Shown: positions 5,297-57,346 of the stretch, piece by piece
Numbering within the stretch: position 1 is the first letter of the stretch
How the letters are laid out: every line of letters starts with the position of its first letter
Source: a virus
DNA length: 64,000 bases
IMG/VR virus record: IMGVR_UViG_3300018059_000013
Reading direction: 5' to 3' (one strand)
Program-made: the position numbers and the translations under genes
Notes under the pieces: model-generated
Database searches by the model: none
Told to the model about the DNA's origin: nothing
The model's input: only the letters and a program-made list of their open reading frames with translations

Positions 5297-5308
5297 TTTG
5301 GTCCTCGG

Positions 5309-5938
5309 TCAGAACCTCCCCGCGAATTCGCAGGGAAACACGATGAGCCGGTGATTCACGGACTGATGACACTCGTTCTTCGTCACCCCTACATGAAATG
5401 TAACGTCCCAGGCGTTGTGTTCGAGTTGCGTCTTCGAGATGATGTCCACGAAGGACCCTGTGCCGATCCCTCTGGTGGGTGATATGGCGAGCGGTGTCGT
5501 GGTCTTGTGCCATCCGTACAGAAGAGAAGGAGCGGAACACGCGCCCGGGTGGCTACGGCGCATTCCCCAAGAGGCGTACGGACCGTACTCGTTGACATTG
5601 TTGATGAGCGGGAAGATCTTTGAAGAGATCACGATCATTCGAGCATCGAACCAGGACCGAGGGTAGTTTCCTTCATTTCTGGAGAAGAGAGACCAGAAGA
5701 GAACCCTCGCCGACGTCGAAGTCCGTTTCAAGATTTCGACTGCAAGGTCAATTTCCTTCTCTTCGATCTCTTCGCGGACGGTGACGAGACGCAGCGCGTT
5801 CATGATTGCTGGATCGACTCGCTTGAGAAGGCTCGGTGCGACCTTACATCCGAGATGCCAATCGAGCATGCAGATCTGCTCGTTGGTGAGTTGATTGAAC
5901 TCTACACCCAATGAACCGTATGTCCCGCTGCACTTCAT
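5309..5938 (-). CDS. Y-family hypothetical protein, tandem paralog 2 (209 aa)
   Basis: Paralog of 4703..5296. Confidence 0.55.
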   Translation of the reverse strand: MKCSGTYGSLGVEFNQLTNEQICMLDWHLGCKVAPSLLKRVDPAIMNALRLVTVREEIEEKEIDLAVEILKRTSTSARVLFWSLFSRNEGNYPRSWFDARMIVISSKIFPLINNVNEYGPYASWGMRRSHPGACSAPSLLYGWHKTTTPLAISPTRGIGTGSFVDIISKTQLEHNAWDVTFHVGVTKNECHQSVNHRLIVFPCEFAGRF

Positions 5939-15027: not shown

Positions 15028-15320
15028 AGCGTATCCTCTACGACTTTCAAGTACTTGTGGTCAATGTGAAAATTGATCGATGGTTCGATTAGGCAGAGCA
15101 ACCTCTGTTCGAACAGAACAGGGTACCTTCCGAAGGTCGATCCCACCTCAAAGGACATGTCTCCCAGGACAACAAGGTGACTTCTCTTCTGGATCTGGAC
15201 CGTGTTCAATCCGAACACCATCGTAGTTTGATCTCGGGCGACCAACCAGCTGAAGTTCGCAGCTATCACCCGTAGAAGAATTCCCTTGCGGAACGCTGGG
15301 AACACTGGAGCTTCGATCAT
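15024..15320 (-). CDS. hypothetical protein (98 aa)
   Basis: Start/stop overlap with neighbouring genes. Confidence 0.4.
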   Translation of the reverse strand: MIEAPVFPAFRKGILLRVIAANFSWLVARDQTTMVFGLNTVQIQKRSHLVVLGDMSFEVGSTFGRYPVLFEQRLLCLIEPSINFHIDHKYLKVVEDTL

Positions 15321-16309
15321 TCGCTCCTCTGAGAGGGTTGAACGTACGGAATTCCGAGAATCTTGTAGACGTCTTCTTCGTTGGTACCACCGATGTGTTT
15401 GGCGACGATTTCTTCACCGCACATCGCGACTTCCGGTCCGTAGACCGTCTTACGAGCATCCAGGTCCACTCCGTCCGCGACGAGGTAGATTCCGTACTCG
15501 TTCATGCGCATCCCTCTGGACTTCAACATGCCCCGCACGCGCTGGTTATGCATCTTGTTGCCGGTGGCGTAGTTGAGCGCGGCGCCCCAGTGCCAACGAT
15601 TCACTATCCAAAGATCGCATTGGATGCGTTGTGCTTCGTCGTTGACGAGGATGGCGGACTTAATGGGACCGCTCCATAGAACCTGACCGAGCTGTTCGAA
15701 AGCTCTTTTGATCTGAGCATCGGTGGCGAACTTACCGGTATCGTCGTGTTCTACGACGATGTCGATGTCTTTGCAAGTTGCGGTGTGCCGACGGATAGAT
15801 CCACAGATCTCGACCGATTTCACTCCCGACGAGAGAAGGGAATTTTTGATTCGATTGGCGATGGTGAGAGCGATCTCGATCGGAACTCGTTTGGCTTGGG
15901 ATTCCGCCGAGAGGACGTTCTTTGTCAAACTCGCGGAGAGCTCTCCCTGATGAGCTCTGAAGACGAGCTCTTCGAAGGAGGTAATACCCTGTTCGAAGAG
16001 AGCCCCGGCGGTCTTGGGCCCGACACCTGGAACGTTCATCAGGGAGAGGATCTCGACAGGCCATCTCGTGGAGAGATCCTCCAATCGAGTTGATGTTCCT
16101 CTGATGAAAAACTCCTTGATCGTGGCTCCAATGCTCGGTCCCACTCCAGGGATCTTCATGGGAGTACGAAGTTCTTCGTTTGTCCTGCCGCGTACTTGCA
16201 GCGACGCGTTGAGGTACGCTCGTATTTTGTGCGGGTTCTCCGCATCTAGATCCATGAGCCTGGCGACGGCTTCTAAGTGTTCTGACAGTTTGACCGAATC
16301 GTCGCTCAT
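15317..16309 (-). CDS. family X DNA polymerase (Pol beta-like, 330 aa, no PHP domain)
   Basis: Two helix-hairpin-helix motifs (IPGVGPSIGATI, VPGVGPKTAGAL) and a nucleotidyltransferase motif (ICGSIRR...KDIDIVV). Confidence 0.8.
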   Translation of the reverse strand: MSDDSVKLSEHLEAVARLMDLDAENPHKIRAYLNASLQVRGRTNEELRTPMKIPGVGPSIGATIKEFFIRGTSTRLEDLSTRWPVEILSLMNVPGVGPKTAGALFEQGITSFEELVFRAHQGELSASLTKNVLSAESQAKRVPIEIALTIANRIKNSLLSSGVKSVEICGSIRRHTATCKDIDIVVEHDDTGKFATDAQIKRAFEQLGQVLWSGPIKSAILVNDEAQRIQCDLWIVNRWHWGAALNYATGNKMHNQRVRGMLKSRGMRMNEYGIYLVADGVDLDARKTVYGPEVAMCGEEIVAKHIGGTNEEDVYKILGIPYVQPSQRSE

Positions 16310-18882: not shown

Positions 18883-19815
18883 TCAGTATCGTAAAGTCTG
18901 GCCGTTCGTCACTCGTTTACACTGCGAGCACGTTTGGATTGGTCCGCATGCGTAACCGCACAGTTTGAAGTACTTACGTTTTGCAGTGGTCGTCGCGCAA
19001 GCGGGCATTCCGTCCGATGCGAGCAGGTGAATGCCGCCTGCCCGCTGTTCGTTCTCCGAACACCCGTTTTGTTTCATGCTCATCATCTCTGTCGTAACCG
19101 GCGAGGCAAAGACGGACACCAGTCGTTGAATCGACATCATCAGAACTGCCTTGCTCAAGAAGGGAACCGCATTGACGATGTACCTTCGAAAAAACTTGAT
19201 CGTCGTCACGGGAACCCTTTCGAAGGCTTGCCCGACGCCGAGCGTAACGGGAACGTTGAGCTCCAACAAATTCGCTCTGATCCACTTTTCCTGCTTGGGA
19301 GAATCGAGCGCCACCAGCAAGATATCCGGAGAGCACGATCTGACTGCCGTGCGAATTCCCGTCTGTTCCTCGGAACAGTCGAACGAGGAGTTCGGTGGGC
19401 TGTACTGGCCCACGATGTTCGTTCCAGGATATTTCTTCCGCAGGAAATCGCCCGCTCTCGTCGCCGACCCAGGACAACCTCCTAGGAGGAAGACTCGACA
19501 GTTGCTCTCCATCGAAATGCGCCCAACCTCTTGGACGAGGTCCCTGCTCGAAATGCGCTCGGGAATGGGGTGGCCCGTGAGGTGTGAAAGGAGGACGATA
19601 GAATGTCCATCGGCGAGGACGAGATCCGCATCCTCATAGGTTCGTGCGTACGTTACGTCGGAGTCCGCTAACCGGAGATTTTCGAGATCTCCCATGCAGA
19701 CGTACTTCGGCTGAAGCCGCTGACGAGCGAAGGCTTCTACGATGGCCCCGGCCTCCGACCTGGTGACCCTGTCGAAACGAATGTTCCTCACACGCACTTC
19801 CGGATCTTGGTGCAC
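18883..19815 (-). CDS. WecG/TagA/CpsF-family (GT26) glycosyltransferase with a Cys-rich C-terminal extension
   Basis: ADGHSIVL, RISSRDLVQEV, RVFLLGG, NIVGQYSPP, ILLVALDSPKQEKW and LGVGQAFE align with E. coli WecG motifs. Confidence 0.7.
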   Translation of the reverse strand: MHQDPEVRVRNIRFDRVTRSEAGAIVEAFARQRLQPKYVCMGDLENLRLADSDVTYARTYEDADLVLADGHSIVLLSHLTGHPIPERISSRDLVQEVGRISMESNCRVFLLGGCPGSATRAGDFLRKKYPGTNIVGQYSPPNSSFDCSEEQTGIRTAVRSCSPDILLVALDSPKQEKWIRANLLELNVPVTLGVGQAFERVPVTTIKFFRRYIVNAVPFLSKAVLMMSIQRLVSVFASPVTTEMMSMKQNGCSENEQRAGGIHLLASDGMPACATTTAKRKYFKLCGYACGPIQTCSQCKRVTNGQTLRY

Positions 19816-23899: not shown

Positions 23900-24367
23900 T
23901 CAGAAAGCTTTCTTCTTCTTGGATTCACGCTCGAGCTTGGCGAGGTCGTCGGCCTGTTGACGCCTACGGATGATTCTCATCTTCGTATTGAGAATCTCGG
24001 TACTGCTGGGAGAACCGTCTGACAAAGTTTCGATGAACTCCCAGTGTGGGAGGCCGACGCCGTCGTGGGGCATGATCCCGTCCCGTTCACCGTCGCCGAA
24101 GATGATTCCGATCACGCGCCGAGGAGGGAGGTTCTTGCGAACCTCCGCATGCTGTGTGACGATGTCTTCATCGACATCCAGACCAAGGTCCTTGTTGGAC
24201 GTCAGGACGACCTGGGCGGGATATCCACCCTCCTCGACCGACTGCGTCGCCTCGAGCAAGTAGCTGATCTGCCCGACATTGTACGCGACAGATCGTTCGA
24301 GATCCTGCATATGAAACTTGGTCGACGTAGGCAAACAGTAGAACCCGTCGGTAACTTTACGAACCAT
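23900..24367 (-). CDS. P-family hypothetical protein, copy 1 (155 aa)
   Basis: About 60% identical over 110 aa to 55011..55502 (CLPTS.KFH.Q..ERS...ATQSVE.GGYP..VVLT...QHAEVRKNLPPR...GLPHWEFI). Own promoter instance and GAAGGGGG Shine-Dalgarno upstream. Confidence 0.55.
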   Translation of the reverse strand: MVRKVTDGFYCLPTSTKFHMQDLERSVAYNVGQISYLLEATQSVEEGGYPAQVVLTSNKDLGLDVDEDIVTQHAEVRKNLPPRRVIGIIFGDGERDGIMPHDGVGLPHWEFIETLSDGSPSSTEILNTKMRIIRRRQQADDLAKLERESKKKKAF

Positions 24368-31670: not shown

Positions 31671-31997
31671 TTAGATGACCCTGAACTCGTAGGAAAAGAG
31701 CAAAATGGAGAGGACTTCACTTTCGAACAACACTACCATGCGATTCGCCGAGGAGCCGTCTCTAACGTATTCGAAGTCCATCAGACAAACGATGATGGAA
31801 CCAACGGGAGCCGGACGAAGCTTTCCTTGGGCCCATCCTGCTACGGTGCAATTCTTCCGAGTGATCTCGAGCAGAGAACCCTTCGCTACGAACATGGGAA
31901 CGGAGTCATTCTGTTCAAGACATCCTTGGTCATACCACCAATGATCTGGCCGGTAGGATACAGAAAATATCCATCTCCCAAATGGAGAACGACCCAC
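31671..31997 (-). CDS. hypothetical protein (108 aa); ambiguous against the overlapping plus ORF 31506..32036
   Basis: Local GC3 bias is weak and neither frame is decisive. The minus strand is preferred only because every other gene is on it. Confidence 0.25.
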   Translation of the reverse strand: MGRSPFGRWIFSVSYRPDHWWYDQGCLEQNDSVPMFVAKGSLLEITRKNCTVAGWAQGKLRPAPVGSIIVCLMDFEYVRDGSSANRMVVLFESEVLSILLFSYEFRVI

Positions 31998-32043
31998 CCT
32001 TGGGCTTTAGCGATCCAATACGATCCAAGAAGTTGATACAGCA

Positions 32044-32202
32044 TTAGAGTGCTTGCATGTGGTTCAAAACGATCTCGAAGATCATTTTTCTAATCTCGCC
32101 AGTCGGGAGCAAGAACCAATCATCTCCGAGATGAATGACGATCTTTCCCCGTGCGAGAGGGCCGAGGAGAACCCAAGAGAGTCCCACGAGCTGATATGGC
32201 AT
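32044..32202 (-). CDS. Z-family small protein (~52 aa, MPYQLVG...FLLPTGEIRKMIFEIVL)
   Basis: Paralog of 32375..32593, 32594..32742 and 23613..23816. Confidence 0.4.
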   Translation of the reverse strand: MPYQLVGLSWVLLGPLARGKIVIHLGDDWFLLPTGEIRKMIFEIVLNHMQAL

Positions 32203-32444
32203 CACTTCTTCTTGGGAATGAGATAACCAATCGCTCTTCCGGCGACGAGGAAGACGAGCCCCCAAAAGGTAAACGTTACAAATACCGGCCACATGAGCGC
32301 CGCCGCGAAAATGATCGTGGGCGCTTTCAACATCTTCGCCTCACCCGTATAAGGTATGTACCGCGCTCCCAAGATCAGGAGAACGAGAACGATCCCAAAC
32401 GGGATGAAGTACCACGCGGGATGTTGCATGAAGATAACGAGCAT
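32202..32444 (-). CDS. small membrane protein (80 aa, 2-3 TM helices)
   Basis: Strongly hydrophobic; stop overlaps the downstream ATG (TGATG). Confidence 0.4.
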   Translation of the reverse strand: MLVIFMQHPAWYFIPFGIVLVLLILGARYIPYTGEAKMLKAPTIIFAAALMWPVFVTFTFWGLVFLVAGRAIGYLIPKKK

Positions 32445-32593
32445 CTGATTTCTTCCATTCCTTTTTCGATGATATCAGCACTCACTGGACCGACGTTTCC
32501 CTTCGGGAACAGAAAGTAGTTCTCCGACAGACGAAGAACGACATACCCCCGTTGATGTTCGAACCAGATAGTTCCTACGAGTTTATAGGGCAT
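32375..32593 (-). CDS. Z-family small protein (MPYKLVG...FLFPKGNVGPV)
   Basis: Paralog; ATG immediately follows the stop of 32594..32742. Confidence 0.4.
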   Translation of the reverse strand: MPYKLVGTIWFEHQRGYVVLRLSENYFLFPKGNVGPVSADIIEKGMEEIRCSLSSCNIPRGTSSRLGSFSFS

Positions 32594-32742
32594 CTAAATT
32601 CTGTCATGTAGAAGACTTGGATGTTTAGATTGACGTGAACTATGTCTCCATCTGGGAACAGGAAGAAATATTCGAACAGTCGGATGGCAACCTTACCCCG
32701 GACATCCGAGGACCACCAGCATCCAGATAGACGATACAACAT
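32594..32742 (-). CDS. Z-family small protein, 49 aa (below the track cutoff)
   Basis: MLYRLSGCWWSSDVRGKVAIRLFEYFFLFPDGDIVHVNLNIQVFYMTEF, read directly from the sequence. Confidence 0.35.
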
Positions 32743-32750
32743 TACGTTAG

Positions 32751-32822
32751 CGATCCCGGCGAGGTTCGAACTCGCGTAAACGGAGTGAAAATCCGCTATC
32801 CTAACCGCTAGATGACGGGACC
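32751..32822 (-). tRNA. tRNA-Glu (anticodon TTC)
   Basis: Cloverleaf: acceptor GGTCCCG/CGGGATC, T-arm GCGAG-TTCGAAC-CTCGC, anticodon arm GCGGA-TTTTCAC-TCCGT; CCA not encoded. Confidence 0.8.
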
Positions 32823-32833
32823 GTGAAGTTCAG

Positions 32834-32905
32834 CTGGTCGAGGCGGAATCGAACCACCGGCGCCCCTTTTCCGGGGCGTACTCGTGCCACTTGAGCTACC
32901 GACCA
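32834..32905 (-). tRNA. tRNA-like gene with a non-canonical anticodon arm (type undetermined)
   Basis: Good acceptor, D-arm (G18 G19) and T-arm (GGTGG-TTCGATT-CCGCC). The anticodon region ACGCCCCGGAAAAGGGGCGCC can only form a 6-nt (GGAAAA) or 8-nt (CGGAAAAG) loop, never 7. Confidence 0.5.
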
Positions 32906-35214: not shown

Positions 35215-35676
35215 TCAACTCATTCTACGACGAGTGTATCTTTCACTGACGTATCCACGTCCCATGTTCTTGCCGCAAAACGTATCCGTTTGCGACTGGC
35301 AATTGGGACAGATCAGACGAAGGTTCGTCTTGAGATTATTTTCGCAATTTCCATCGATATGATCGAGTTCGATGGGAGCGGGTTTGCCCAACCATTCCGT
35401 CAACCCGCAAATTTGGCACTGATTGCCGAACTCTTTGAGAAGACGCGATTTTCGACTGCCATCCGTCTTCAGACTATCGAAAGGAATACGACAAGATTTT
35501 GAATGCCCACCGAATTTGTTCCCATCAGAGAACGATTCGTTGCAGAGCAAACACACATGAGTCGTAGGCGGACCCGGAACGGGAGCAGCTGTTCCATCTC
35601 TAGTGTGGCTTCCTCGGTGACCCCCGAGCTGCTGTCCTGAACTGAACTTCTTCTTGCAAACATCGCACGAAAACAT
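35215..35676 (-). CDS. HNH endonuclease with N-terminal C2H2-type zinc fingers, copy 1 (153 aa)
   Basis: CDVCKKKFSSGQQLGGHRGSH (C2H2); CQICG...ELDHIDGN...NLRLICPNCQ (HNH). Directly downstream of tRNA-Gln. Confidence 0.75.
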   Translation of the reverse strand: MFSCDVCKKKFSSGQQLGGHRGSHTRDGTAAPVPGPPTTHVCLLCNESFSDGNKFGGHSKSCRIPFDSLKTDGSRKSRLLKEFGNQCQICGLTEWLGKPAPIELDHIDGNCENNLKTNLRLICPNCQSQTDTFCGKNMGRGYVSERYTRRRMS

Positions 35677-35710
35677 CTATATCGAATGTAGAATAGAAGT
35701 TTTTCTTTTG

Positions 35711-35782
35711 TAGGGGATGAAGGATTCGAACCTCCATACGGCGGGTCAAAGCCGCCTATTCTAGCCGTTGAATTAATCCCCT
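35711..35782 (-). tRNA. tRNA-Gln (anticodon TTG)
   Basis: Acceptor AGGGGAT/ATCCCCT, D-stem ATTC/GAAT, anticodon arm GGCGG-CTTTGAC-CCGCC, T-arm GGAGG-TTCGAAT-CCTTC. Confidence 0.8.
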
Positions 35783-35789
35783 GGTCGAT

Positions 35790-36293
35790 TCAGGTGAGCT
35801 GGCGTGCGAACCAGTTCAGAGCTTCGTCGATAGTCGAGAAGATGTTCGCCTTCGGGAATCGGGCGCGCAAAACCTTTTCGGTCTGCTTGTACGACTTGAG
35901 AGCGTGGCCCTCGATACCTACGGGGTCGAACACGACCACAGTGTCGAGCTGACGATCGTACAGGGCCATGGTCGCTTCCACCATGGAGTACGCGCTCAGA
36001 GGATTACCATCCTGTTGGGGAGATCCGATGTAGAAGACGAGGTGCGTGGCTGCCTTCTTCGCCGCTTCTTCCTTCTTCGCATCGTCCTCGGTCCAGTCTT
36101 CGACGACGGGATTGAAGATGTCTTCCATGTTGTACCCACGGCGAAGAAGAGCGGGGATGAAGTCCGCGCGCCACTTGTTGTTCGCCACCGTACCGCCGAG
36201 AAAGATCAGACGTTTTCGTGCGTTCATTCGAGGAACCTCTTTCGAGAGAATGTACATGAGAGCGATGACGCCCACGATGATGGATTTTTTCAT
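35790..36293 (-). CDS. membrane-anchored protein with a nucleoside 2-deoxyribosyltransferase-like / flavodoxin-like fold (~167 aa)
   Basis: Internal start MKKSIIVGVIALMYIL (TM), then RLIFLGG...VFYIGSP...VVVFDP. The listed N-terminal extension is a low-complexity artefact. Confidence 0.35.
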   Translation of the reverse strand: MKKSIIVGVIALMYILSKEVPRMNARKRLIFLGGTVANNKWRADFIPALLRRGYNMEDIFNPVVEDWTEDDAKKEEAAKKAATHLVFYIGSPQQDGNPLSAYSMVEATMALYDRQLDTVVVFDPVGIEGHALKSYKQTEKVLRARFPKANIFSTIDEALNWFARQLT

Positions 36294-36316
36294 TTCTTTT
36301 AAATTGGTCAAAGCAG

Positions 36317-36784
36317 TTATCTTCTCGTGCACTCTCCAGATTCGGCTTCCTTCATGAGCTCCCTCAGAACGAGACCATTTCCGTAGCGTTTGCGGGAAAA
36401 TTGATTCCCTACGAAGCAGCGCCCGTGGGTGTAGATTCCCAAGGAGTCGCGCCCGCGAATTCCCGCATTCTCGCAGAGATCGACGCTCTCTTGGATTCGA
36501 ACTAGAGCGAGGTGGGCTTGCTTTTCGAGCAATTGGGAGCACGAATCTGCGACTTCTTCGTTGGAACGCGGGACGATCTGAAAGGTGCCCCTTGCTCCGT
36601 ACGAATTCAACCTCCTACAGAAGACAACGTCTTTGTCGAATCCACTCTCTCCTCGAGCTATTAGGAGGAGAGTTTCCACCTGCCAGACTTCGACAGAGAC
36701 TGCAATGGTCGCTCGCACGACCTTGTCGACAACGTCCTCATCAACGTGTTGGGAGAATCTCGGTTCTTTTGTTGCGAGATTCAT
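36317..36784 (-). CDS. lytic transglycosylase (SLT-domain) protein (~156 aa)
   Basis: Catalytic ES (IARGESGFD) and GARGTFQIVP motifs. The internal ATG at 36784 is used; the listed 249-aa N-terminal extension is G/R-rich and overlaps gene 36814..37182. Confidence 0.55.
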   Translation of the reverse strand: MNLATKEPRFSQHVDEDVVDKVVRATIAVSVEVWQVETLLLIARGESGFDKDVVFCRRLNSYGARGTFQIVPRSNEEVADSCSQLLEKQAHLALVRIQESVDLCENAGIRGRDSLGIYTHGRCFVGNQFSRKRYGNGLVLRELMKEAESGECTRR

Positions 36785-38633: not shown

Positions 38634-38887
38634 TCTAGCTCCCCAAATCGGAATCTCAAGTTTGGGAGGGAAGAACGCACCGTTCGACCGACCCAGAGTT
38701 GAACGCCCGATTGCGTTCTTTTTAGCCCGGTGTTTCTCCGGGTATGCGTGCGCTAAGCGCTGTCTTTGTCCCTAGGCTTGCTGCTTGGCGGTGCTTCGGG
38801 ATCGATATCGTGACGCCGTCGAGGAAGGAAAATTTCAGCTCCCATAGAAGGACTTCTTCATGATGTTTCTCCTTTCTCAAAGATTCG

Positions 38888-38964
38888 CGGTTCATCCAAG
38901 ATTCGAACTTGGAACCGAACGGGTTCTAACACCCGAGCGCTCTACCAATTTGAGCTAATGAACC
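38888..38964 (-). tRNA. tRNA-like gene (77 nt) with an irregular anticodon arm, type undetermined
   Basis: Perfect acceptor GGTTCAT/ATGAACC, D-arm GCTC...GAGC, T-arm CCAAG-TTCGAAT-CTTGG. The anticodon region CGGGT-GTTAGA-ACCCG gives a 6-nt loop (or 8-nt with a 4-bp stem). Confidence 0.5.
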
Positions 38965-41385: not shown

Positions 41386-41453
41386 GATGAGAGCCGCAGA
41401 TCTGGATCGAACAGACGACAACCGCTTTACGAAAACGGGGCTCTACCTCTGAG

Positions 41454-41933
41454 CTACTGCGGCGAAGGATATTTGTAGTACTTTTTTCGTAGTATCAATC
41501 GCGATGTCTTAAATTTTCCTCTGTTTTTTCCAGCGTACGAATCAGTTTGCGCGTGGCAATTAGGACAGATGAATCTGAGATTTTCTATCGAATTGATCTC
41601 AGGATTTCCGTCAACGTGATCCATTTGAATGGGAGCGGATTTCCCACACCATTCTTCGATCCCGCAAATTTCGCATTTTACTCCTCTTTCAGAGAGGAGT
41701 CTCGTCTTTCTAGTACCATCTTTTTTGACATCTTCGAATGCCAGTGCGTGCAATCGTTTGTGACCGCCCAGCCGATATCCAGTCTCAAAATGCTTTCTGC
41801 AGATATTGTACGTATGAGTTTTGTCAGATGGTGGAATTTTCCACGAAGGATCTCTTCGTGTGTGTCCACTACGATGTCCTCCTAAACGAGAAGAATTCTC
41901 GAACTCTTTCCCATGCACGTCGCATGAAAACAT
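41454..41933 (-). CDS. HNH endonuclease with N-terminal C2H2-type zinc fingers, copy 2
   Basis: MFSCDVHGKEF...GGHRSGH; CEICG...QMDHVDGN...NLRFICPNCH. Paralog of 35215..35676. Confidence 0.75.
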   Translation of the reverse strand: MFSCDVHGKEFENSSRLGGHRSGHTRRDPSWKIPPSDKTHTYNICRKHFETGYRLGGHKRLHALAFEDVKKDGTRKTRLLSERGVKCEICGIEEWCGKSAPIQMDHVDGNPEINSIENLRFICPNCHAQTDSYAGKNRGKFKTSRLILRKKYYKYPSPQ

Positions 41934-42165
41934 GCGGAAAATGTACAAAAGAAATCATGATTGAACATCTCGAAAGGACATGAACCACCCGAGAAAATCT
42001 GCATCTTTCCATTGGACTCCATCTGTCCGTCGCTTCTCAGCACGAAGCATCCACTAAGCTCAGAATCTCTTAGGACTATGAAGCAATGGTTCTTGGATTT
42101 GGACCACCACATCGAACCCTGGGTGAGGAGAGGTTGGGCTGCAACCCAAGCTGTATCGTCGAAGC

Positions 42166-42941: not shown

Positions 42942-43262
42942 TCAGAGCTTGGCATCCTTGACTTTCTCGTTCATAGATTCGAACCACTGCGCGTTGCAGA
43001 TCTTGCACTTCACATGGAAGTGCGGAACTCTCGGACAGAGCAGTCTTCCGATCCACCATCGTCGCTTGCCGTAGCAGAGGTTGCTGTACTTGAGCCAGGT
43101 CTCCTCCTTGTAGTGTCGATGGCACGCACGACAGAAGTCTTCTCGGAATCTGAACGACCCGTACGGGTGGGCGGGCATATCTTTCGTCTCTTCCTCGGAT
43201 CTAACGAGCTTGTCCCAGGCCTCGCGAAAGTCCGCGATCGTGAGAGGATCTTTAGCAGTCAT
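42942..43262 (-). CDS. hypothetical Cys/His-rich protein (106 aa)
   Basis: CRACHRH...CPRVPHFHVKCKICN motifs. Confidence 0.45.
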   Translation of the reverse strand: MTAKDPLTIADFREAWDKLVRSEEETKDMPAHPYGSFRFREDFCRACHRHYKEETWLKYSNLCYGKRRWWIGRLLCPRVPHFHVKCKICNAQWFESMNEKVKDAKL

Positions 43263-43477
43263 AGCTCAACCCACTGTTCGTAGCTCTCTATGTCGGGAGC
43301 CCATACGATCTTTCCGTCGGAAAGCAAGAACACGCATGAAGGCGCTCCGTTGTAGGTCCAGGTGCATCTGGCAACGAGAATTGCCACCTCCCCTTTTTCC
43401 AGTGGAAAATAGCATTTACCGTTCCCGCTCGGATCTGTCCACACATGCGCAGGGGTCGTGAATCGAATGAGTGTCAT
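43259..43477 (-). CDS. W-family small protein (72 aa)
   Basis: YFPLEKGEVAILV...VFLLSDGKIVWAPDIESYEQWVEL. Confidence 0.4.
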   Translation of the reverse strand: MTLIRFTTPAHVWTDPSGNGKCYFPLEKGEVAILVARCTWTYNGAPSCVFLLSDGKIVWAPDIESYEQWVEL

Positions 43478-43486
43478 TTGTCCCTA

Positions 43487-43708
43487 CTAGATAAATTCCC
43501 AATCTTTAGTCGAGAAAATCGGAGTCCATCCGATCCTGCCATCGTCTAAGAGAAAGAAATGAGCTGGCATTGGGTCAATTGGACTTTTTCTCCACATGAA
43601 GGAAGCGATTATCATCGCCATCGTTCCCTTTTTCACCCAGATGGAATCTTCTGGTGTACCCTCGCCGGTCCAGGCATATATGCCGTTCAAAAAACGGACG
43701 ATAGTCAC
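43487..43708 (-). CDS. W-family small protein (~73 aa, probable GTG start with AGGAAG Shine-Dalgarno)
   Basis: VTIVRFLNGIYAWTGEGTPEDSIWVKKGTMAMIIA...HFFLLDDGRIGWTPIFSTKDWEFI aligns along its full length with 43259..43477. Confidence 0.35.
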   Translation of the reverse strand: MTIVRFLNGIYAWTGEGTPEDSIWVKKGTMAMIIASFMWRKSPIDPMPAHFFLLDDGRIGWTPIFSTKDWEFI

Positions 43709-43799
43709 TTGTTCTTCCTGCGCATGAAGGCGAAGAATGAAGAGGCGAGCCTGTACGAGTTGACGATGGATTTCATGGTTCTTGATTCTTCGATCCACA

Positions 43800-44090
43800 T
43801 CATTCGATCTGCTTCCAAGCGTGGTCTTGGATGGTGAACCAGCACCCGCAAGCGCCGTGCCCGACCACCCACGCAAAAGCGTACTGCAGATGGTCTAAAG
43901 CATGATTGCGGTTCTGTTCCTCAGTGAATCCTATGATGAGCAGAATACTGTTGTATACGTTCTCGTGATGGACTAGTTGACCCACGCGCGGATCATCTGT
44001 TCTTGTTGAGAGTTTACACAACTGTAAATGGTCTCCCGGATATTGCGCCGTAAAACTCCATAAAGATCCGACCAAGTGATCGTAGATCAT
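43800..44090 (-). CDS. hypothetical protein (96 aa)
   Basis: ORF only. Confidence 0.35.
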   Translation of the reverse strand: MIYDHLVGSLWSFTAQYPGDHLQLCKLSTRTDDPRVGQLVHHENVYNSILLIIGFTEEQNRNHALDHLQYAFAWVVGHGACGCWFTIQDHAWKQIE

Positions 44091-44272
44091 TCGATTTGTC
44101 CCTTCATGAGGGAAGGATGGAGAAGGGCGTACCTCGATCTTCCTTTATAGAAGATGAAAGCGGGGATTGAATCGTTTTCAGACCCCGGCTCGAGGAATGG
44201 ATTAACCAGCAGCACGATGAACGGAACTCCTGCGGAGAGAAAGACGTCTCCCGCTTTCGGATCGAACATCAC
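44087..44272 (-). CDS. small-family protein (61 aa, KAGDVFL)
   Basis: ORF only. Confidence 0.35.
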   Translation of the reverse strand: MMFDPKAGDVFLSAGVPFIVLLVNPFLEPGSENDSIPAFIFYKGRSRYALLHPSLMKGQIE

Positions 44273-45426
44273 TCTGTCTCGGGCGGAACTTCGTAGATCT
44301 TGTTGGCGATCTCGAGCTCCTTCTGTTCCTCGTATGTCAGGATGCCCGTTTCACCCTTGCCGACGTGGTAGACGGCTTCTTGCCAGAGCTCCTTGCGATT
44401 GCCGTGTAGGAAGTCGAAGTCGAGCCGTTGGGAACCATTGAGTTTCACGACCCACAACCGACGATTAAACGCGGGATCCGTGATGAACTGCATGGGGTTC
44501 GAAGTCGCCGCGAAACCCTGGCGAAGAGCGTACCGCTGGGGCTTCCTCGCCCAAGGCAATCGGACGTCGATGAACTGCGATGTGAGCAGCTGTTTGAAAA
44601 CATCCTGCGTCTTCGGATACGCAAGGACAGAAAGCTCGTCGAAGCAGGCGACGGTCTTTCCGACGATCGCTTCCTGAAACTTCTGCGGGCTCTTAATGTC
44701 GCACAGGATCTCTCCCGTGCGCGCCTCGAAGGGTTCGGGCAAGAGCTCTCTGAAGAACCTCGTCTTACCGACGCCTGCCGGACCCTGGAAGACGAAGCAT
44801 CCGTCGTGTGACGATCCGGGTTCGAGCGCCCGCTTGGCCGTTCCGATGATCCATTTGCGGAACAACCGATTCGCGGCGGGAACATCATCAGCAGCGATCG
44901 CCGTGCCGAACGCTCTGGGCAGGAACGTGTCGATGACGCTGGTCTTGCTCGGGTCCCAGCCTGCGAACTCCTGCTTGAATTTCAGCGAAGTGAAGTCGCT
45001 TACCTCCAGGTCGTCCAGAGCATTCTCGAGGTGACCTCGAAGCGCCGGGCTATTGATTCCGGTCTGCTTGCTGATCATGGTGATGATGTCGAGCTTGGTC
45101 TTGGGCAGAATGGGATTTCCATCGAAGTAGACCTGCCCGTTCTCCTCATCCTTCATGAGCATGCCCTTCACGGCGGGGCTGTTCGTGAGCCATTCATGGA
45201 CGAAGATGGCGGAAGATTTGAAGACGATGTTCTCCTTCTTGTCCATGGTGAAGTGGACGGTGTCGTATCCGACCTTTCCCGCTGCTTCCTTGCGAGCTTG
45301 ATCTAGGGTCTTGGCGAAGTAGTTTCCAATGAGACCCTTTGCCTTCTTCTTGATTTCACCCGTGATGAGAGACTTACCCGTTGAGAGCAACATCTTGCCC
45401 ACGATGTCTCCGATTCCCTTCGCCAT
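44269..45426 (-). CDS. D5 / P4-primase C-terminal-type P-loop NTPase (SF3 helicase-like, 385 aa)
   Basis: Walker A FQGPAGVGKTRF, Walker B VACFDE, downstream ATSNP (sensor-like); the domain order resembles phage/plasmid primase-helicase C-terminal NTPases. Confidence 0.7.
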   Translation of the reverse strand: MAKGIGDIVGKMLLSTGKSLITGEIKKKAKGLIGNYFAKTLDQARKEAAGKVGYDTVHFTMDKKENIVFKSSAIFVHEWLTNSPAVKGMLMKDEENGQVYFDGNPILPKTKLDIITMISKQTGINSPALRGHLENALDDLEVSDFTSLKFKQEFAGWDPSKTSVIDTFLPRAFGTAIAADDVPAANRLFRKWIIGTAKRALEPGSSHDGCFVFQGPAGVGKTRFFRELLPEPFEARTGEILCDIKSPQKFQEAIVGKTVACFDELSVLAYPKTQDVFKQLLTSQFIDVRLPWARKPQRYALRQGFAATSNPMQFITDPAFNRRLWVVKLNGSQRLDFDFLHGNRKELWQEAVYHVGKGETGILTYEEQKELEIANKIYEVPPETE

Positions 45427-45432
45427 GTTATT

Positions 45433-45783
45433 CTACTTTCTTCTTCCAGAGTACTCGAAGAAAATCTCTTCGTATTCGCAGGAAGAATGGAAGTCTTCCC
45501 ACTTGCCAGAACCCAGGACGATCCTACGACATCCGGGAATGATCCGGTTTGCCTCGATGAGAGCACGATTGAGTCCTGTGCAGACACCACTCATCTCTCT
45601 AGCTAACCTCATGATGTCCACAAAGGTCGGGTTCCCCTGAAATTCGACCATGAGAGGTCGGTAATCGAAGCAGAACACGATATCTTCGGGGCGGAAGGCT
45701 CGAACGATGTAATGCGCTTGATCCTGATTCATCGAAATGCTCGTCAGTCCCGAAGCGTCCATCAAAAATGCGGTGGACATCAC
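45433..45783 (-). CDS. degenerate vWA-like protein (116 aa), tandem paralog of 45780..46304
   Basis: Aligns with the neighbouring vWA protein, but the MIDAS motif DxSxS is replaced by DASG and TGGTDL by GVCTGL. Confidence 0.5.
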   Translation of the reverse strand: MMSTAFLMDASGLTSISMNQDQAHYIVRAFRPEDIVFCFDYRPLMVEFQGNPTFVDIMRLAREMSGVCTGLNRALIEANRIIPGCRRIVLGSGKWEDFHSSCEYEEIFFEYSGRRK

Positions 45784-46304
45784 TTCACCCGGTATTGACG
45801 AAGACTGTTCTTACTATAGACACTGAAGGGAGCATGCGTCTTTTTCATCCACCCATCGGGGACGATGTCTGCAGCATCACTGTTGTGGACGAAGATCACG
45901 AGATCGTAATCGAATTCCTTGTTCAGGCTCTCGTGGTTGCCGTCCGATAGGACGAAGAGTTTCCCATCGGGGGACATCTTCCGTGCGTACAGAATCGCCT
46001 GGCGGAGGTCCGTCCCTCCGGTCTGGGTCTTGCGCACATTGATGATGTCTTCGTACGTCGGATTTCCGAGGAACGAAACTGCGAAGGACGTATGATGCCA
46101 GCCCACCACGCAGTCACCGGGACGGAAGCGATGGGAGATGTATCTCGCCATGTCCATGAACATGCTACCCGATGTGCTGCCCGAGTAATCGATGAGAAAC
46201 ACGGTCTTTTCGTTGTTTTCCATAATGTCTACTTTCCTTCGTTCCAGGCACCCACGAGCGGAAGAACGATGATCGTTTTGAGAGAAACTTTCGACTCGAT
46301 CCAC
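45780..46304 (-). CDS. von Willebrand factor A (vWA) domain protein with an intact MIDAS motif (174 aa)
   Basis: VFLIDYSGSTSGS (DxSxS), TGGTDLRQAI, and LSDGN at the end of the domain. Confidence 0.6.
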   Translation of the reverse strand: MDRVESFSQNDHRSSARGCLERRKVDIMENNEKTVFLIDYSGSTSGSMFMDMARYISHRFRPGDCVVGWHHTSFAVSFLGNPTYEDIINVRKTQTGGTDLRQAILYARKMSPDGKLFVLSDGNHESLNKEFDYDLVIFVHNSDAADIVPDGWMKKTHAPFSVYSKNSLRQYRVK

Positions 46305-46591
46305 GCCTTTACCTTCTCACGGTCGAGATCGGTGCAATGGACATTCTTGTAGTGCATCTTACCGTTCGACTTACGTCGGGTCGGCACGCACTTGGTGACG
46401 AATTGTTCCATGCGCTCGCTGCTGGTGCAACCGCCGCTACCGAGATCGTTAGCCTCAAGGTACTCGAGGAATTCGTCGAGGAAATCGTCGACCTCGCTCT
46501 CGGAGAGCAGAGGGAAGAACACGCACAGGATTTCGAATCCCTTGTAGTCGAATTCACGGAGGTGTTTTTTCTTTCGGAGCCTGCGATTCAT
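46229..46591 (-). CDS. YggL (DUF469)-family protein
   Basis: MNRRLRKKKHLREFDYKGFEI...DDFLDEFLEYLEANDLGSGG matches the YggL N-terminal signature RRLRKKLH..EF..GF. Confidence 0.6.
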   Translation of the reverse strand: MNRRLRKKKHLREFDYKGFEILCVFFPLLSESEVDDFLDEFLEYLEANDLGSGGCTSSERMEQFVTKCVPTRRKSNGKMHYKNVHCTDLDREKVKAWIESKVSLKTIIVLPLVGAWNEGK

Positions 46592-46863
46592 CACAACCAC
46601 TCATCCTTGACGAACATCCATTCGCTGCGAAATTTGCCAGCAGGCGTCAGAACCCGACCCGTCCAACAATCATACTGATCGTTGTACTTGGTGCAAACAT
46701 CGACGACTAACATGATCTCGTCCGGCATCATGCTATTTTGATCACATTTGATGATGAAAACATCGCCGAGCTGCGGAGGGTTCGATTGAGATCGAACTGT
46801 TGAATTGAATCTTCGGATCACATCCGCTCCCAATCGCTCATCGTCCAATCCCAAGGATTCCAA
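46591..46863 (-). CDS. small-family protein (90 aa, QLGDVFII)
   Basis: ORF only. Confidence 0.35.
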   Translation of the reverse strand: MESLGLDDERLGADVIRRFNSTVRSQSNPPQLGDVFIIKCDQNSMMPDEIMLVVDVCTKYNDQYDCWTGRVLTPAGKFRSEWMFVKDEWL

Positions 46864-47084
46864 AGGTTCGAATCTCTTCTGAGAATGAACCTTCCGACAG
46901 TTCCATTGTTCATGAGAACGTCTGCTTCGTAGTAATTCGTCTGGGAAAGAACAAGGAGAATGTCTACGCGAGTTTTGGTCCCGGGCCGTTTCTTCGGCTT
47001 CTTGGGAATGTAGACGAGTATGTCTCCTGCTTTAACGTCTATGCCCAGCTTCGAATTCATTCGACTACTCTGATTCCTCCGCAC
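46818..47084 (-). CDS. small-family protein (88 aa, KAGDILVYI)
   Basis: ORF only. Confidence 0.35.
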   Translation of the reverse strand: MRRNQSSRMNSKLGIDVKAGDILVYIPKKPKKRPGTKTRVDILLVLSQTNYYEADVLMNNGTVGRFILRRDSNLWNPWDWTMSDWERM

Positions 47085-47290
47085 AAGGAGACGATAGAGA
47101 TCTTATCTCCTCTCAGGAGCTCGAAGCGCTGGTACTTGTGCGTTACCGACTGCCACTTGCCTAGAGAACTCAATCGAAGAAGGTATTCTTCTGGCTCAAT
47201 CTCTGATTGGGCTTGCTGCCACCAGTATGGATAACTGTAGATGCGGCAGAGTTCTCCGGGCTCAAGGCTTTCGATGCGACAGATTCTCAC
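47057..47290 (-). CDS. hypothetical small protein (77 aa)
   Basis: ORF only. Confidence 0.3.
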   Translation of the reverse strand: MRICRIESLEPGELCRIYSYPYWWQQAQSEIEPEEYLLRLSSLGKWQSVTHKYQRFELLRGDKISIVSLCGGIRVVE

Positions 47291-47544
47291 GGATTCTTTT
47301 CTAGATAGAGCTCGTCGCGTCTCGACTGGATGTGCTCACGGAGAGGACCACCGGTCGTATGACCGTATAGGATCATCCAATCGTCGATCTTCTTGTAGTT
47401 GTTAGAACGCAGCGCTTCACGCAAATCATCGAACTTGCGATCGGTCTTGAGTTGATTCTTCTTGAAGCGGGACAGGAGGAAGTACCCTCCGAATCCTGTT
47501 CCTCCGAGGAGTGCCAGCAGAACGAGGAACTCTGCGAAGATCAT
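47287..47544 (-). CDS. small membrane protein (85 aa, N-terminal TM)
   Basis: FLVLLALLGGTGFGGYFLL. Confidence 0.4.
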   Translation of the reverse strand: MIFAEFLVLLALLGGTGFGGYFLLSRFKKNQLKTDRKFDDLREALRSNNYKKIDDWMILYGHTTGGPLREHIQSRRDELYLEKNP

Positions 47545-48467
47545 TTCTTGGGGGTGATCTGAAGGATGAAGTTGGGATTCTGCGGGACCATGACGGACCC
47601 ACCCTTCTCGGCGGCGTAGGCGTACACGTCGCGGACGTAGTATTCGGGATTGCGATGCAGCGCCGCCCCAATGATGTCGATCTTCTTGGCGGTGGCCTGC
47701 GCTTCGACGTCCTGCTTCACGATGTCGAGCTTGGCCGTTTCGATCTCGGCCTGCACCTTCTCGCGCTCGGCGATCGCCTTGTCTTTCAGGACGGCCTGGG
47801 TCGCCCGGTCGGTGTTGGCGTGGACCAGCTGCTCCGGAAAGCTGAGGTTAGAGAGATTGAGACCGTAGACGGTCACGAAGTTTCCCTCCACCTTTGCGAG
47901 TTGGTCGGTGAACTTCTTCTTGATCTGCTCGAAGATTTCATCTCGTCGTGCATTGACGTCATTTGCGATGACCGGAGACACTGCCTCGCGAACCGCCTCA
48001 CCGAGAGCGGGCCGGATGTAGGTGTTGTAGACCTGTCGACTCGTGATGGTGAGTTCGGGATGCGGCTCGATCGGGTCAGAGTTATCGTCCTTCGGAGCTT
48101 TGGGATCGACCGCGCGGGCGTTGCCGGGGGAGAGCGTGCTGAGGAGACCTTTAATGGCATCTTCGTTATCGCAGTTCGCGCTGAACCTGACGTAGATGTC
48201 GAGGTTGAACTGGACACTGTCTTTCGTCATCGCGTTGAGAGGTTCCTTGATGGTGCGCTGCCCGCAATCGACCATGCGAACTTCGGGGTAGATTGACGTG
48301 AAGTAGGTGCCGGGTCCGAGGATGGGACCCTCGAATCCCTTTCCGCCCGAGTAGAAAGCCAGCCAACCCGTCTTGTCGAACATTCGACCTTTGTGCGCCT
48401 GCGGCACGTCTTGGCTCGAACATCCGACTGCGAGCGCTGCGAAAGCGAGGATACCTAGTCTTCTCAT
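47541..48467 (-). CDS. SPFH/Band-7 (HflK/C, stomatin-like) domain lipoprotein
   Basis: Internal ATG at 48467 gives the lipoprotein signal MRRLGILAFAALAVGC (lipobox AVGC). SPFH core TKDSVQFNLDIYVRF...IRPALGEAVREAVS...FVTVYGLNLSNLSFP. The listed N-terminal extension is R-rich junk. Confidence 0.7.
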   Translation of the reverse strand: MRRLGILAFAALAVGCSSQDVPQAHKGRMFDKTGWLAFYSGGKGFEGPILGPGTYFTSIYPEVRMVDCGQRTIKEPLNAMTKDSVQFNLDIYVRFSANCDNEDAIKGLLSTLSPGNARAVDPKAPKDDNSDPIEPHPELTITSRQVYNTYIRPALGEAVREAVSPVIANDVNARRDEIFEQIKKKFTDQLAKVEGNFVTVYGLNLSNLSFPEQLVHANTDRATQAVLKDKAIAEREKVQAEIETAKLDIVKQDVEAQATAKKIDIIGAALHRNPEYYVRDVYAYAAEKGGSVMVPQNPNFILQITPKK

Positions 48468-55010: not shown

Positions 55011-55502
55011 TCACGCCGCCTTCGTGGCAGTCTTCTTCGCCGCCGCTGCAGCCTGCTTCGCAGCCTCGCGGCCGTCGCGGTTCTGCTTGAGCCTCTCACC
55101 GGTGGCGGCGATCGTGTCCATCGACGCCGAACCATCCTCGTTCGTCGGGATGAACTCCCAATGCGGCAGGCCGATTCCCTTTGCAGGGACGTCTCCGTAG
55201 GTCGAACCGTCCGACATGACGACGCCGGTGACCTTGCGCGGGGGAAGGTTCTTGCGAACCTCGGCGTGCTGGGTCGCGACCTCGTCGCCGAGGCTCAGCT
55301 CGAGGTCGCCGTCGGGAGCGGTGAGAACCACCGCCGGGGGATACCCACCGTCCTCGACGGACTGGGTCGCGCTGAGGATGTATGCCGTTTGGTCAGGCGC
55401 GAAAGCTCCGCTGCGCTCACGTTCCTGGCAGTGGAACTTCGACGACGTGGGGAGACAGAAAATGCCGACGAGCGACTTGGTGGTGCGATTCTTGCGGATC
55501 AT
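55011..55502 (-). CDS. P-family hypothetical protein, copy 2 (163 aa, A/K-rich C-terminal tail)
   Basis: Paralog of 23900..24367; AGGAG Shine-Dalgarno 8 nt upstream; own promoter instance. Confidence 0.55.
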   Translation of the reverse strand: MIRKNRTTKSLVGIFCLPTSSKFHCQERERSGAFAPDQTAYILSATQSVEDGGYPPAVVLTAPDGDLELSLGDEVATQHAEVRKNLPPRKVTGVVMSDGSTYGDVPAKGIGLPHWEFIPTNEDGSASMDTIAATGERLKQNRDGREAAKQAAAAAKKTATKAA

Positions 55503-56097: not shown

Positions 56098-56354
56098 CAG
56101 CCGTTGTTCTTGAACGTCGGAAATGCCTGGTCGAACGCTTCCTGCGCCTTCTGGAGCTCTGCCATGCACGCTCCGTACTCGACCCAGTTCTTGGCCTTGA
56201 GAGCCTTCTTCGTCGCAATGGAGAGAGTCTCCGCAAGCCGCATAAACATCACGAGTGGACCTTCCATCGGCGAACGCTTGACGACATTCACCGTGACAGT
56301 GATCGGCTTCTGCTTGGTTGTCGACTTCTTCGTAACCTTCTTCTTCGTTTTCAT
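56097..56354 (-). CDS. hypothetical K-rich protein (85 aa)
   Basis: ORF only. Confidence 0.4.
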   Translation of the reverse strand: MKTKKKVTKKSTTKQKPITVTVNVVKRSPMEGPLVMFMRLAETLSIATKKALKAKNWVEYGACMAELQKAQEAFDQAFPTFKNNG

Positions 56355-57346
56355 GATCGTCTCCTTCTCATTCCGAATACGATCATCGCTACCATCAGGA
56401 TGATCGACGTGATGTTAGTTCTTGCGTGCACCATTCGGCATCCACCGGCATCGATACGACGATCTGGATGTGGAACGGGTCCACTCTCCTCCAGGTTAAA
56501 CGTCGTTCCCGCGAAGAGGAACGCATCCTTGAAGAGCGAATCGAAACCTGCAGTGGTCGTGTAAACATGCCCGAAGTTGTCTGAACATTCTCCGCCGCGC
56601 GAGACGACGCCGATGATCGCTCCTGTAGCTTCGCTGATGGCGGGACCACCGCTATCACCCTGGCACGATCCTACGTCCACCTCGAATTCGTGCTCTCCGA
56701 GGATGAAACCCGTAGAGGTTTTCGTTCGACCTTGTGTTAGGACGCTAACGTTGCCTCGGCGGAATCGACTTCCGATGGGTACATTCTTATCGTTTTTCCC
56801 ATACCCAACTGACAGAACCTTTTCTCCCATAGCAGCAGGAGACTTAAGGCGGACAGCCAACACATCGATATTAGTTATCGGAGTTTCGAGCACGATGATT
56901 GCGATGTCGTGATCGCACAAGTTTTTTCCGTTCGTGGTGAATATCGCAATAGCTCGTGAACGAGGTGGATCGGAAAAGTGGGGAGTCGCACCGGAATAGA
57001 CTCCTATGCTCGTCGGGTCCATGTTTCCCTCCACGTGGTCTCCGTTCAAGCTGTCGCTGTTTTGGTTACAGGCGATTTGGTACGTGATAACTTTCGAAAT
57101 GCAGTGTCTCGCTGTGAGAACGACGTTGGAAGCGATGAGTGTACCTGTACAAAGGCCGAACGTATCACCGTTGATCGTTCGAATAGCGACCACACTCTCG
57201 TTGGAACTCGCGTCGTTATCTTCCATTCCTCCGAAGATGGCGGGTTTCGAAGTGTTTGATCCGATTTGGATGATTTCATTCTCTGAAGATTCGATCGTGC
57301 ATCCCGATAGAATCAGAGAGATAATCGGGATGCACGATCGAATCAT
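56351..57346 (-). CDS. trypsin-like (S1) serine protease lipoprotein with a MYXO-CTERM-like C-terminal sorting tail
   Basis: Lipoprotein signal MIRSCIPIISLILSGC; catalytic triad contexts LTARHC, DIAII, GDSGGP; C-terminal GGCRMV plus TM helix plus RRRR. Confidence 0.75.
   Translation of the reverse strand: MIRSCIPIISLILSGCTIESSENEIIQIGSNTSKPAIFGGMEDNDASSNESVVAIRTINGDTFGLCTGTLIASNVVLTARHCISKVITYQIACNQNSDSLNGDHVEGNMDPTSIGVYSGATPHFSDPPRSRAIAIFTTNGKNLCDHDIAIIVLETPITNIDVLAVRLKSPAAMGEKVLSVGYGKNDKNVPIGSRFRRGNVSVLTQGRTKTSTGFILGEHEFEVDVGSCQGDSGGPAISEATGAIIGVVSRGGECSDNFGHVYTTTAGFDSLFKDAFLFAGTTFNLEESGPVPHPDRRIDAGGCRMVHARTNITSIILMVAMIVFGMRRRRS

Follow-up and report, generated by a model that had tools for sequence, protein, structure and literature searches.

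A block of NTPase, vWA and YggL genes in a huge phage is not a single system: a core SF3 helicase beside a possible YggL/mini-vWA adaptor cassette

The window analysed here is a 64,000-nucleotide stretch of viral DNA (IMG/VR record IMGVR_UViG_3300018059_000013), and our subject is a block of four adjacent genes within it (Table 1), which code for a P-loop NTPase, two von Willebrand factor A (vWA) proteins, vWA1 and vWA2, and a homologue of the ribosome-associated protein YggL. An initial annotation, made from the sequence, had read these genes as an operon-like unit and suggested that they might form one system of the bacterial conflict or MoxR chaperone type. We find that the block is neither an NTPase-vWA system nor one machine. 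The explanation that we favour, with a probability of roughly one half, is that two separate neighbours meet at this position: a core replication helicase and a co-inherited cassette of YggL and small vWA adaptors (hereafter mini-vWA), the latter likely aimed at host translation.

The four genes are real and the domain identities assigned to them hold, as does their adjacency; the order in which they had been listed does not, as transcription runs in the reverse direction, on the minus strand, from YggL through vWA1 and vWA2 to the NTPase. In this order the intergenic gaps are 5, -1 and 6 nt, and the stop codon of vWA1 overlaps the ATG of vWA2 by one base (TGATG), which suggests that both proteins are produced in matched amounts. 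The start of vWA1 is the ATG at 46223; a 174-amino-acid open reading frame (ORF) beginning at an upstream GTG was considered and rejected, as it overlaps YggL and is given no support by the orthologues. The genes flanking the block lie on the same strand and are packed equally tightly, so packing does not set the four genes apart as a unit. A promoter and terminator scan gave no signal beyond shuffled expectation, and hence no transcription unit was delimited. The identical block is found in the public assembly GCA_902730045.1, on contig CACVEL010000001.1 (350,418 bp), and on a 322.7-kb ENA contig, so that the source of the window is a huge phage of about 350 kb. Rfam confirms three tRNA genes in the window, which is also rich in small ORFs, and no DNA similarity of the region to GenBank phages was detected in a nucleotide search.

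Table 1. Coordinates of the genes discussed, numbered along the window
Feature	Coordinates	Strand	Length	Remarks
YggL homologue	46229-46594	minus	~120 aa	PF04320 match; leads the variable cassette
vWA1	45780-46223	minus	147 aa	Mini-vWA; metal site intact by sequence; carries FRPGD and GNPT
vWA2	45433-45780	minus	115 aa	Tandem paralog of vWA1; metal site degenerate
NTPase (VapE-like SF3 helicase)	44269-45426	minus	385 aa	Core gene; without primase domain
SPFH/Band_7 lipoprotein	47541-48467	minus	308 aa	Band_7 E 5.5e-16; phrog_200 'lipoprotein' E 2.6e-20; conserved upstream flank of the slot
Predicted membrane protein	47287-47544	minus	85 aa	Hydrophobic N-terminus in translation; conserved flank
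Three small ORFs	46591-47290	minus	77, 88, 90 aa	Between the Band_7 flank and YggL; variable slot filler
tRNA genes supported by Rfam	Glu-TTC 32750-32822; Gln-TTG 35710-35782; Thr-CGT 41391-41463 (minus)
Family-X (Pol beta-like) DNA polymerase	15317-16309	minus
WecG/TagA-type glycosyltransferase	18883-19815	minus
Trypsin-like serine protease	56351-57346	minus
Nucleoside 2-deoxyribosyltransferase-like protein	35790-36542	minus

The NTPase matches the VapE-like domain of Pfam (PF05272 class; E 5e-32, residues 161-377), what it matches among the PHROGs is the C-terminal half of longer families of helicases or primases, and the solved structure nearest to it is the self-loading helicase Rep1 of the Staphylococcus aureus pathogenicity island (SaPI) SaPI1. 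The superfamily 3 (SF3) core is complete, with Walker A, Walker B, motif C and an arginine finger, and the invariant residues are G215, G220 and K221 in Walker A, D263 and E264 in Walker B, N310, and R322/R323. Judged from these residues, the protein belongs to the D5/P4/Rep kind of SF3 helicases and is catalytically intact; it is of the replicative type rather than a MoxR AAA+ ATPase and does not fit the proposed MoxR-type chaperone. Residues 1-160, a short N-terminal domain, matched no primase family, and a scan of the larger ORFs of the window did not turn up a primase either, the genes upstream of the helicase being assigned the vWA fold. The initial annotation had itself named two findings that would speak against its reading, namely a primase domain encoded just upstream and vWA genes not conserved with the NTPase; the first does not hold here, whereas the second does.

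Homologues of the helicase form 92 clusters of 44-91% identity, nearly all of them full length, and many lie on contigs of 250-440 kb, which marks it as a core gene across a broad group of huge phages. The ratio of nonsynonymous to synonymous substitution rates (dN/dS), computed against a relative (locus L007; the loci of relatives are designated by L numbers), is 0.036 for the helicase and 0.13-0.31 for the cassette genes (vWA1, 0.13; YggL, 0.20; vWA2, 0.31), with dS close to saturation for some of the four genes. Most likely, this protein is a stand-alone, hexameric enzyme that serves as the self-loading replicative or initiator helicase of the phage and needs no vWA partner. Rep1 and PriRep5 of SaPI are self-loading SF3 helicases of known structure (PDB 7pds and 7ola; Qiao et al. 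2022, PMC9371898). In contrast to these proteins and to the D5/P4 class, the phage helicase has neither a fused nor an adjacent primase domain; it shares just 16-26% sequence identity with solved or GenBank phage members, and it is a core gene of 250-440-kb phages, whereas SaPI Rep is a gene of a small island. It is, consequently, a new and divergent member of the VapE/Rep SF3 class, and a useful marker gene, likely an initiator-helicase, for a large group of phages of that size.

The separation between this helicase and the genes upstream of it became apparent from the gene neighbourhoods of relatives, a comparison that the initial annotation had recommended. Hidden Markov models were built for mini-vWA, phage YggL, Band_7 and the helicase, and every locus fetched was scanned with them. 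At the upstream end, the Band_7 protein is 58-73% identical in L013, L015, L017 and L055, where homologues of the 85-amino-acid membrane protein come after it, and the public assembly GCA_902730045.1 also calls the Band_7 gene at 308 amino acids. What lies beyond this pair changes from one phage to another. The three filler ORFs ahead of YggL are present in L007 and L015 and partly in L005, two different small ORFs take their position in L013, and none of the three is found in L017, where YggL stands directly after a 96-amino-acid gene that comes after Band_7; overall, zero to three extra small ORFs precede YggL across lineages. In L055 the helicase is 69% identical to that of the window: its upstream ORFs, Band_7 protein, membrane protein, helicase and downstream ORFs keep an unchanged order, and the slot between them holds a Nuc_deoxyribosyltransferase-like gene, with YggL and vWA both absent. 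Furthermore, about 15 loci with a helicase of 44-62% identity have neither YggL nor vWA within 5 kb upstream, and the upstream neighbours of the helicase differ among them. Thus, the helicase is found without vWA in at least 16 lineages, the two are not co-conserved, and the proposal of a single system made of NTPase, two vWA proteins and YggL is not supported. As the contents between the Band_7/membrane pair and the helicase differ in this manner, we regard the interval as a variable slot of which YggL and vWA are one cargo; the region from this pair to the helicase is a gene-replacement hotspot with differing cargo (window, 46591-48467; L055:5787-7969; L017:4391-6345).

Within the slot, YggL and the mini-vWA genes behave differently from their neighbours. 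The pair is confined to a narrow sublineage, of which six distinct lineages were sampled; in these, YggL is followed directly by a mini-vWA gene (the window, L005, L007, L013, L015 and L017), with junction gaps of 4-28 nt that stay intact while neighbours are inserted, replaced or duplicated. The number of mini-vWA copies is one in L005 and L017, two in the window and L007, and at least three in L013; the L015 contig stops after the first copy, and those of L013 and L015 stop short of the helicase. Among loci whose helicase is at least 73% identical, L005, L007 and L017 have the order YggL, mini-vWA, helicase, and L016 has a mini-vWA gene immediately before the helicase, its contig being too short to show what precedes the mini-vWA gene. 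Between the last vWA gene and the helicase there are 6-16 nt in the window, L007, L016 and L017. In L005 the position of vWA2 (L005:1440-1627) is occupied by a 60-amino-acid ORF of zinc-ribbon-like pattern (CxxC...C..C) that ends with an RRK* tail and 13 nucleotides shared with vWA2, which suggests, from the sequence, an internal replacement that preserved the vWA2 3' end and the junction with the helicase.

vWA domains bind partners and are not enzymes, and a normal vWA domain is far longer than the proteins described here. For vWA1, the structural model has a Rossmann-like alpha/beta fold with vWA topology, and its structural neighbours include NorD (9qh8), Ssl1 (4wfq) and p44 (8ebs); in Pfam, its scores fall under the gathering thresholds (VWA_2, 18.4 bits against 27; DUF2201, 13.9 against 26.4, E 0.063), and the structural matches of mini-vWA in BFVD are viral vWA or VWA-like proteins. 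Its metal ion-dependent adhesion site (MIDAS) appears intact by sequence (D12-Y-S14-G-S16, T71 in GGTD and D94 in SDG), is kept in the vWA1 orthologues and is a predicted metal site. vWA2 matches nothing in any family library, and its vWA fold is assigned through paralogy with vWA1: in BLASTP both proteins share 36% identity over 109 residues (E 9e-22), which places their paralogy far past chance, as had been claimed for this tandem pair.

It had also been proposed that one copy keeps its MIDAS and the other has lost it, and this is borne out: in vWA2, S16 is replaced by L (DASGL) and D94 by S (LGSG), while FRPEDI (for FRPGD) and GNPT are retained. Its orthologues P0005 (66% identity) and P0006 (46%) show identical losses. 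The possibility that vWA2 is a decaying pseudogene was considered and set aside, as it is maintained in three lineages with the dN/dS given above; it is a relaxed but maintained gene. By contrast, the suggestion that the pair consists of a catalytic subunit and a regulatory pseudo-subunit is weakened, both because vWA domains are binding modules and because the degenerate copy is absent from L017 and replaced in L005, and the three tandem mini-vWA copies that come after YggL in L013 (L013:3139-4378, the contig stopping inside the third) are all MIDAS-degenerate and keep FRPGD and (G/E)NPT.

An exhaustive profile search of 1.84 billion representative proteins returned just 11 mini-vWA matches, and three of these were taken as spurious, being long proteins in which the match is broken into several short pieces. 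No relatives were found in IMG/VR, GenBank phages or the GTDB representative genomes, the latter meaning that none was found in cellular genomes. The members are 105-151 amino acids long, and the short forms end after the fifth strand. This is a tiny, phage-only, minimised and new family within the vWA superfamily. Two motifs are nearly invariant in it, FRPGD (33-37, where helix 1 leads into strand 2) and GNPT (53-56, following strand 3), while the MIDAS is optional. The topology of vWA domains would place the FRPGD/GNPT patch on the side that faces away from the MIDAS. In a neighbour-joining tree, vWA1 orthologues group with the short single-copy forms P0007-P0009, all MIDAS-intact, and vWA2, P0005, P0006 and the three L013 copies form a MIDAS-degenerate group.

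With regard to the origin of these proteins, a profile-profile comparison (hhalign) links the mini-vWA family, at 82% probability and hence weakly, to DUF2201 VWA-like proteins of more distant huge phages. In L018:1-1341 and L019:1238-2918, 5-6 kb upstream of the helicase, there is a split gene pair of DUF2201_N (metallopeptidase-like) and DUF2201 (VWA-like), and it is possible, from sequence resemblance, that such a pair was the evolutionary source of the family. Additionally, the jumbo Agrobacterium phage Atu_ph07 codes for a stand-alone 144-amino-acid protein (A0A2L0UZH0) of similar fold to mini-vWA (TM-score 0.53/0.54 in BFVD), with no detectable sequence similarity.

The first gene of the cassette matches the Pfam family PF04320 (YggL_50S_bp, DUF469) over profile positions 1-101 of 102, with E 6e-16 and 59.6 bits (cut-off 27), and in this full-length match above a curated cut-off it resembles E. 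coli YggL. It is, however, divergent, as it reaches NCBIfam PRK11702 with E 2e-11 and stays under the equivalog cut-off, and it presumably carries an insertion of about 15 residues relative to the E. coli sequence. Orthologues lie directly upstream of mini-vWA in L005, L007, L013, L015 and L017. In GenBank phages, only two weak matches of bacterial type and no phage-encoded copy were found, and a scan of IMG/VR with the YggL alignment found no phage-encoded YggL either. In E. coli, YggL binds 50S and 70S ribosomes (Hör et al. 2020, PMC7498339). The published distribution of the family is restricted to gamma- and beta-proteobacteria (PMC7498339), in contrast to the phage-encoded protein described here, and it hints at a phage host within these classes.

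Taken together, these observations are the basis for our preferred explanation of the cassette. In this view, the mini-vWA proteins would serve as small adaptors that bind partners and have no enzymatic activity. Copies with an intact MIDAS, such as vWA1, would use Mg2+ to hold a partner by one of its acidic side chains, and MIDAS-less copies such as vWA2 would keep the fold and the FRPGD/GNPT patch and bind partners in a metal-independent manner, possibly within a hetero-oligomer with the intact copy. YggL and vWA would act together on the host translation apparatus, during host takeover, rather than on the helicase. A role at the ribosome is preferred over one at the helicase as YggL and vWA appear to be gained, retained and lost as a pair, the YggL-vWA junction persists, both genes are jointly missing from L055, and E. 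coli YggL is a ribosome binder; by analogy with the latter, it is a weak, although favoured, guess. A more specific version, in which YggL docks on the host 50S or 70S and recruits MIDAS and MIDAS-less adaptors, which take hold of a translation factor or ribosomal protein by an acidic residue and so bias translation towards the phage, seems improbable to us in this full form. Rea1/midasin mediates ribosome remodelling through a MIDAS in eukaryotes, and such a device would be a viral, ATPase-free counterpart of it, whose tandem copies diversify as host targets change.

Several points weigh against the explanation that we prefer. The co-occurrence of YggL and vWA may descend from a single ancestral gain, in which case it counts as one phylogenetic event, and the whole region is collinear among these phages, so that adjacency by itself says little on function. 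In all lineages in which both genes are visible, at most one small ORF stands between the last vWA gene and the helicase, so that a link to the helicase retains some probability. The most divergent family member (P0012, from L014) lies on a 1.4-kb contig with no adjoining YggL. Finally, the FRPGD/GNPT patch was placed by topology, and the tree that splits MIDAS-intact from MIDAS-less copies is a rough one that carries no support values.

The most probable alternative, although we consider it somewhat unlikely, is that YggL, mini-vWA and the helicase are independent genes, adjacent through collinearity, and that the vWA array is a fast-evolving, duplicating accessory family, for instance of decoys or inhibitors of a host protein or defence system. 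It would account for vWA genes that vary in copy number, diverge fast and have lost the MIDAS repeatedly, for the many unrelated small ORFs that share the region-wide synteny, for the many further tandem paralog pairs in the window, for the family member without YggL and for the lack of a promoter or terminator signal bounding a unit. It accounts less well for a YggL-vWA junction that survives in six lineages amid changing neighbours, and for the joint absence of both genes from L055. We consider it clearly less probable that the mini-vWA proteins are lineage-specific adaptors or regulators of the SF3 helicase, with the MIDAS tethering the hexamer to a target or gating its loading. Models for such an arrangement exist in the ring ATPase partners RavA-ViaA, CbbQ-CbbO and NorQ-NorD, and in the vWA protein p44, which activates XPD in TFIIH; NorD, Ssl1 and p44, vWA partners of AAA+ rings or of TFIIH, turn up as structural neighbours of vWA1, only a short gap separates the helicase from the last vWA gene in four loci, and the tight packing of the genes suggests translational coupling. 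On the other hand, at 44-69% identity the helicase occurs in at least 16 lineages with no vWA upstream, it is far more constrained than the vWA genes, it belongs to SF3 rather than to MoxR, and the copy that adjoins it is the MIDAS-less one, which L005 exchanges for an unrelated zinc-ribbon ORF. Neither vWA protein has a match in the defence-system library, where the other two genes reach noise level.

There is very little to recommend the notion that the small proteins are not vWA at all, and represent instead a split-off, Toprim-like primase or another Rossmann-like catalytic module. It is true that they lie directly upstream of an SF3 helicase of a type usually fused to a primase, as the PHROG matches to the C-terminal halves of primase/helicase proteins indicate, and that the Pfam vWA match is under its cut-off. 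Nevertheless, this idea is largely refuted already by the viral vWA and VWA-like matches in BFVD, the profile-profile match to the phage DUF2201 proteins, the absence of any primase family among the matches in Pfam, PHROGs and NCBIfam, and the lack of conservation of the candidate metal-binding residues in the family.

Among known systems, the block resembles the MoxR-class AAA+/vWA pairs (RavA-ViaA, CbbQ-CbbO, NorQ-NorD and BchI-BchD type), in which the gene of a P-loop ring ATPase likewise adjoins that of a MIDAS vWA protein; the NorD vWA domain and RavA also appear among structural neighbours. It differs from them in that the ATPase is of the wrong class, helicase and vWA are not co-conserved, and the phage vWA proteins, of 105-150 amino acids, are devoid of the long adaptor regions of ViaA, CbbO and NorD. 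By sequence, the nearest vWA subfamily is that of the phage DUF2201 'VWA-like' proteins (COG3864, phrog_1314; phrog_1314 E 2e-6, in addition to the DUF2201 and hhalign values given above); phage proteins of this type are also among the BFVD structural matches, and one mini-vWA member was labelled 'predicted metal-dependent peptidase' by the Joint Genome Institute. However, mini-vWA proteins are about half the size and come with no DUF2201_N domain or gene, FRPGD and GNPT do not align, and all matches are under the family thresholds; no DUF2201 or DUF2201_N relative was found inside the window. INTS13-INTS14, Ku70-Ku80 and TFIIH p44-p34 are eukaryotic vWA heterodimers with one MIDAS-poor partner. 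Unlike these, the phage proteins have a single domain and their second copy is dispensable in some lineages; a putative heterodimer of vWA1 and vWA2 may be analogous.

That the combination was not a described system is a statement of the initial annotation that stands, and the block is not a listed defence system. In PADLOC, neither vWA had a match and the NTPase and YggL reached noise level (MkoA, E 0.019, and JetA, E 0.039, respectively); NCBIfam likewise gave no significant match for either vWA. Searches of GenBank phage proteins with vWA1 found no relative, those of PDB sequences with the vWA and YggL profiles found nothing, and the same is true of IMG/VR scans with VapE, vWA1 and the YggL alignment, no stretch of the mini-vWA family being conserved enough for an alignment-based scan of that database. 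A degenerate DNA pattern (FRPGD-N45-GNPT) gave five matches in IMG/VR, all of them out-of-frame noise, and neither this pattern nor a YggL scan found a real homologue in 185,579 representative genomes. Literature searches on VapE with vWA, on vWA with HNH and helicase, on DUF469, and on huge phages with von Willebrand returned nothing relevant; a vWA protein of a Ralstonia jumbo phage was considered and discarded, as it is of the TerY type and lies in a tellurite-type cluster.

Tempting as it is, the reading of the block as a new NTPase-vWA conflict system is wrong, and the results define a gene-replacement site between the SPFH gene and the helicase. The cargo found there is unusual, as it combines a YggL homologue not found in GenBank phages or IMG/VR with a mini-vWA family in which a surface other than the MIDAS is conserved. 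Should YggL and mini-vWA act together on ribosomes, they would represent a new type of factor among the translation-related genes of huge phages; if they do not, they are ordinary accessory gene content.

Elsewhere in the window there are many further paralog pairs or arrays, at 31886-32742, 43259-43876, 4703-5938, 2394-3332 with 12041-13192, 1-1504 with 8812-10365, 35215-35676 with 41454-41948, and 23900-24367 with 55011-55502. Among these sets are a tandem run of four small ORFs, a pair of AAA ATPases and a pair of HNH endonucleases, and duplicated genes are a general feature of this genome. In addition to the tRNA genes of Table 1, ARAGORN made two 'tRNA-???' calls with malformed anticodon loops on the minus strand (32833-32905 and 38887-38964), to which the Rfam tRNA model gives no support. 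One ORF for an HNH endonuclease (41454-41948, minus strand), which also matches a C2H2-type zinc finger, runs with its end some 10 nt into the 5' part of the tRNA-Thr gene, and it may represent the insertion of a homing endonuclease beside a tRNA.

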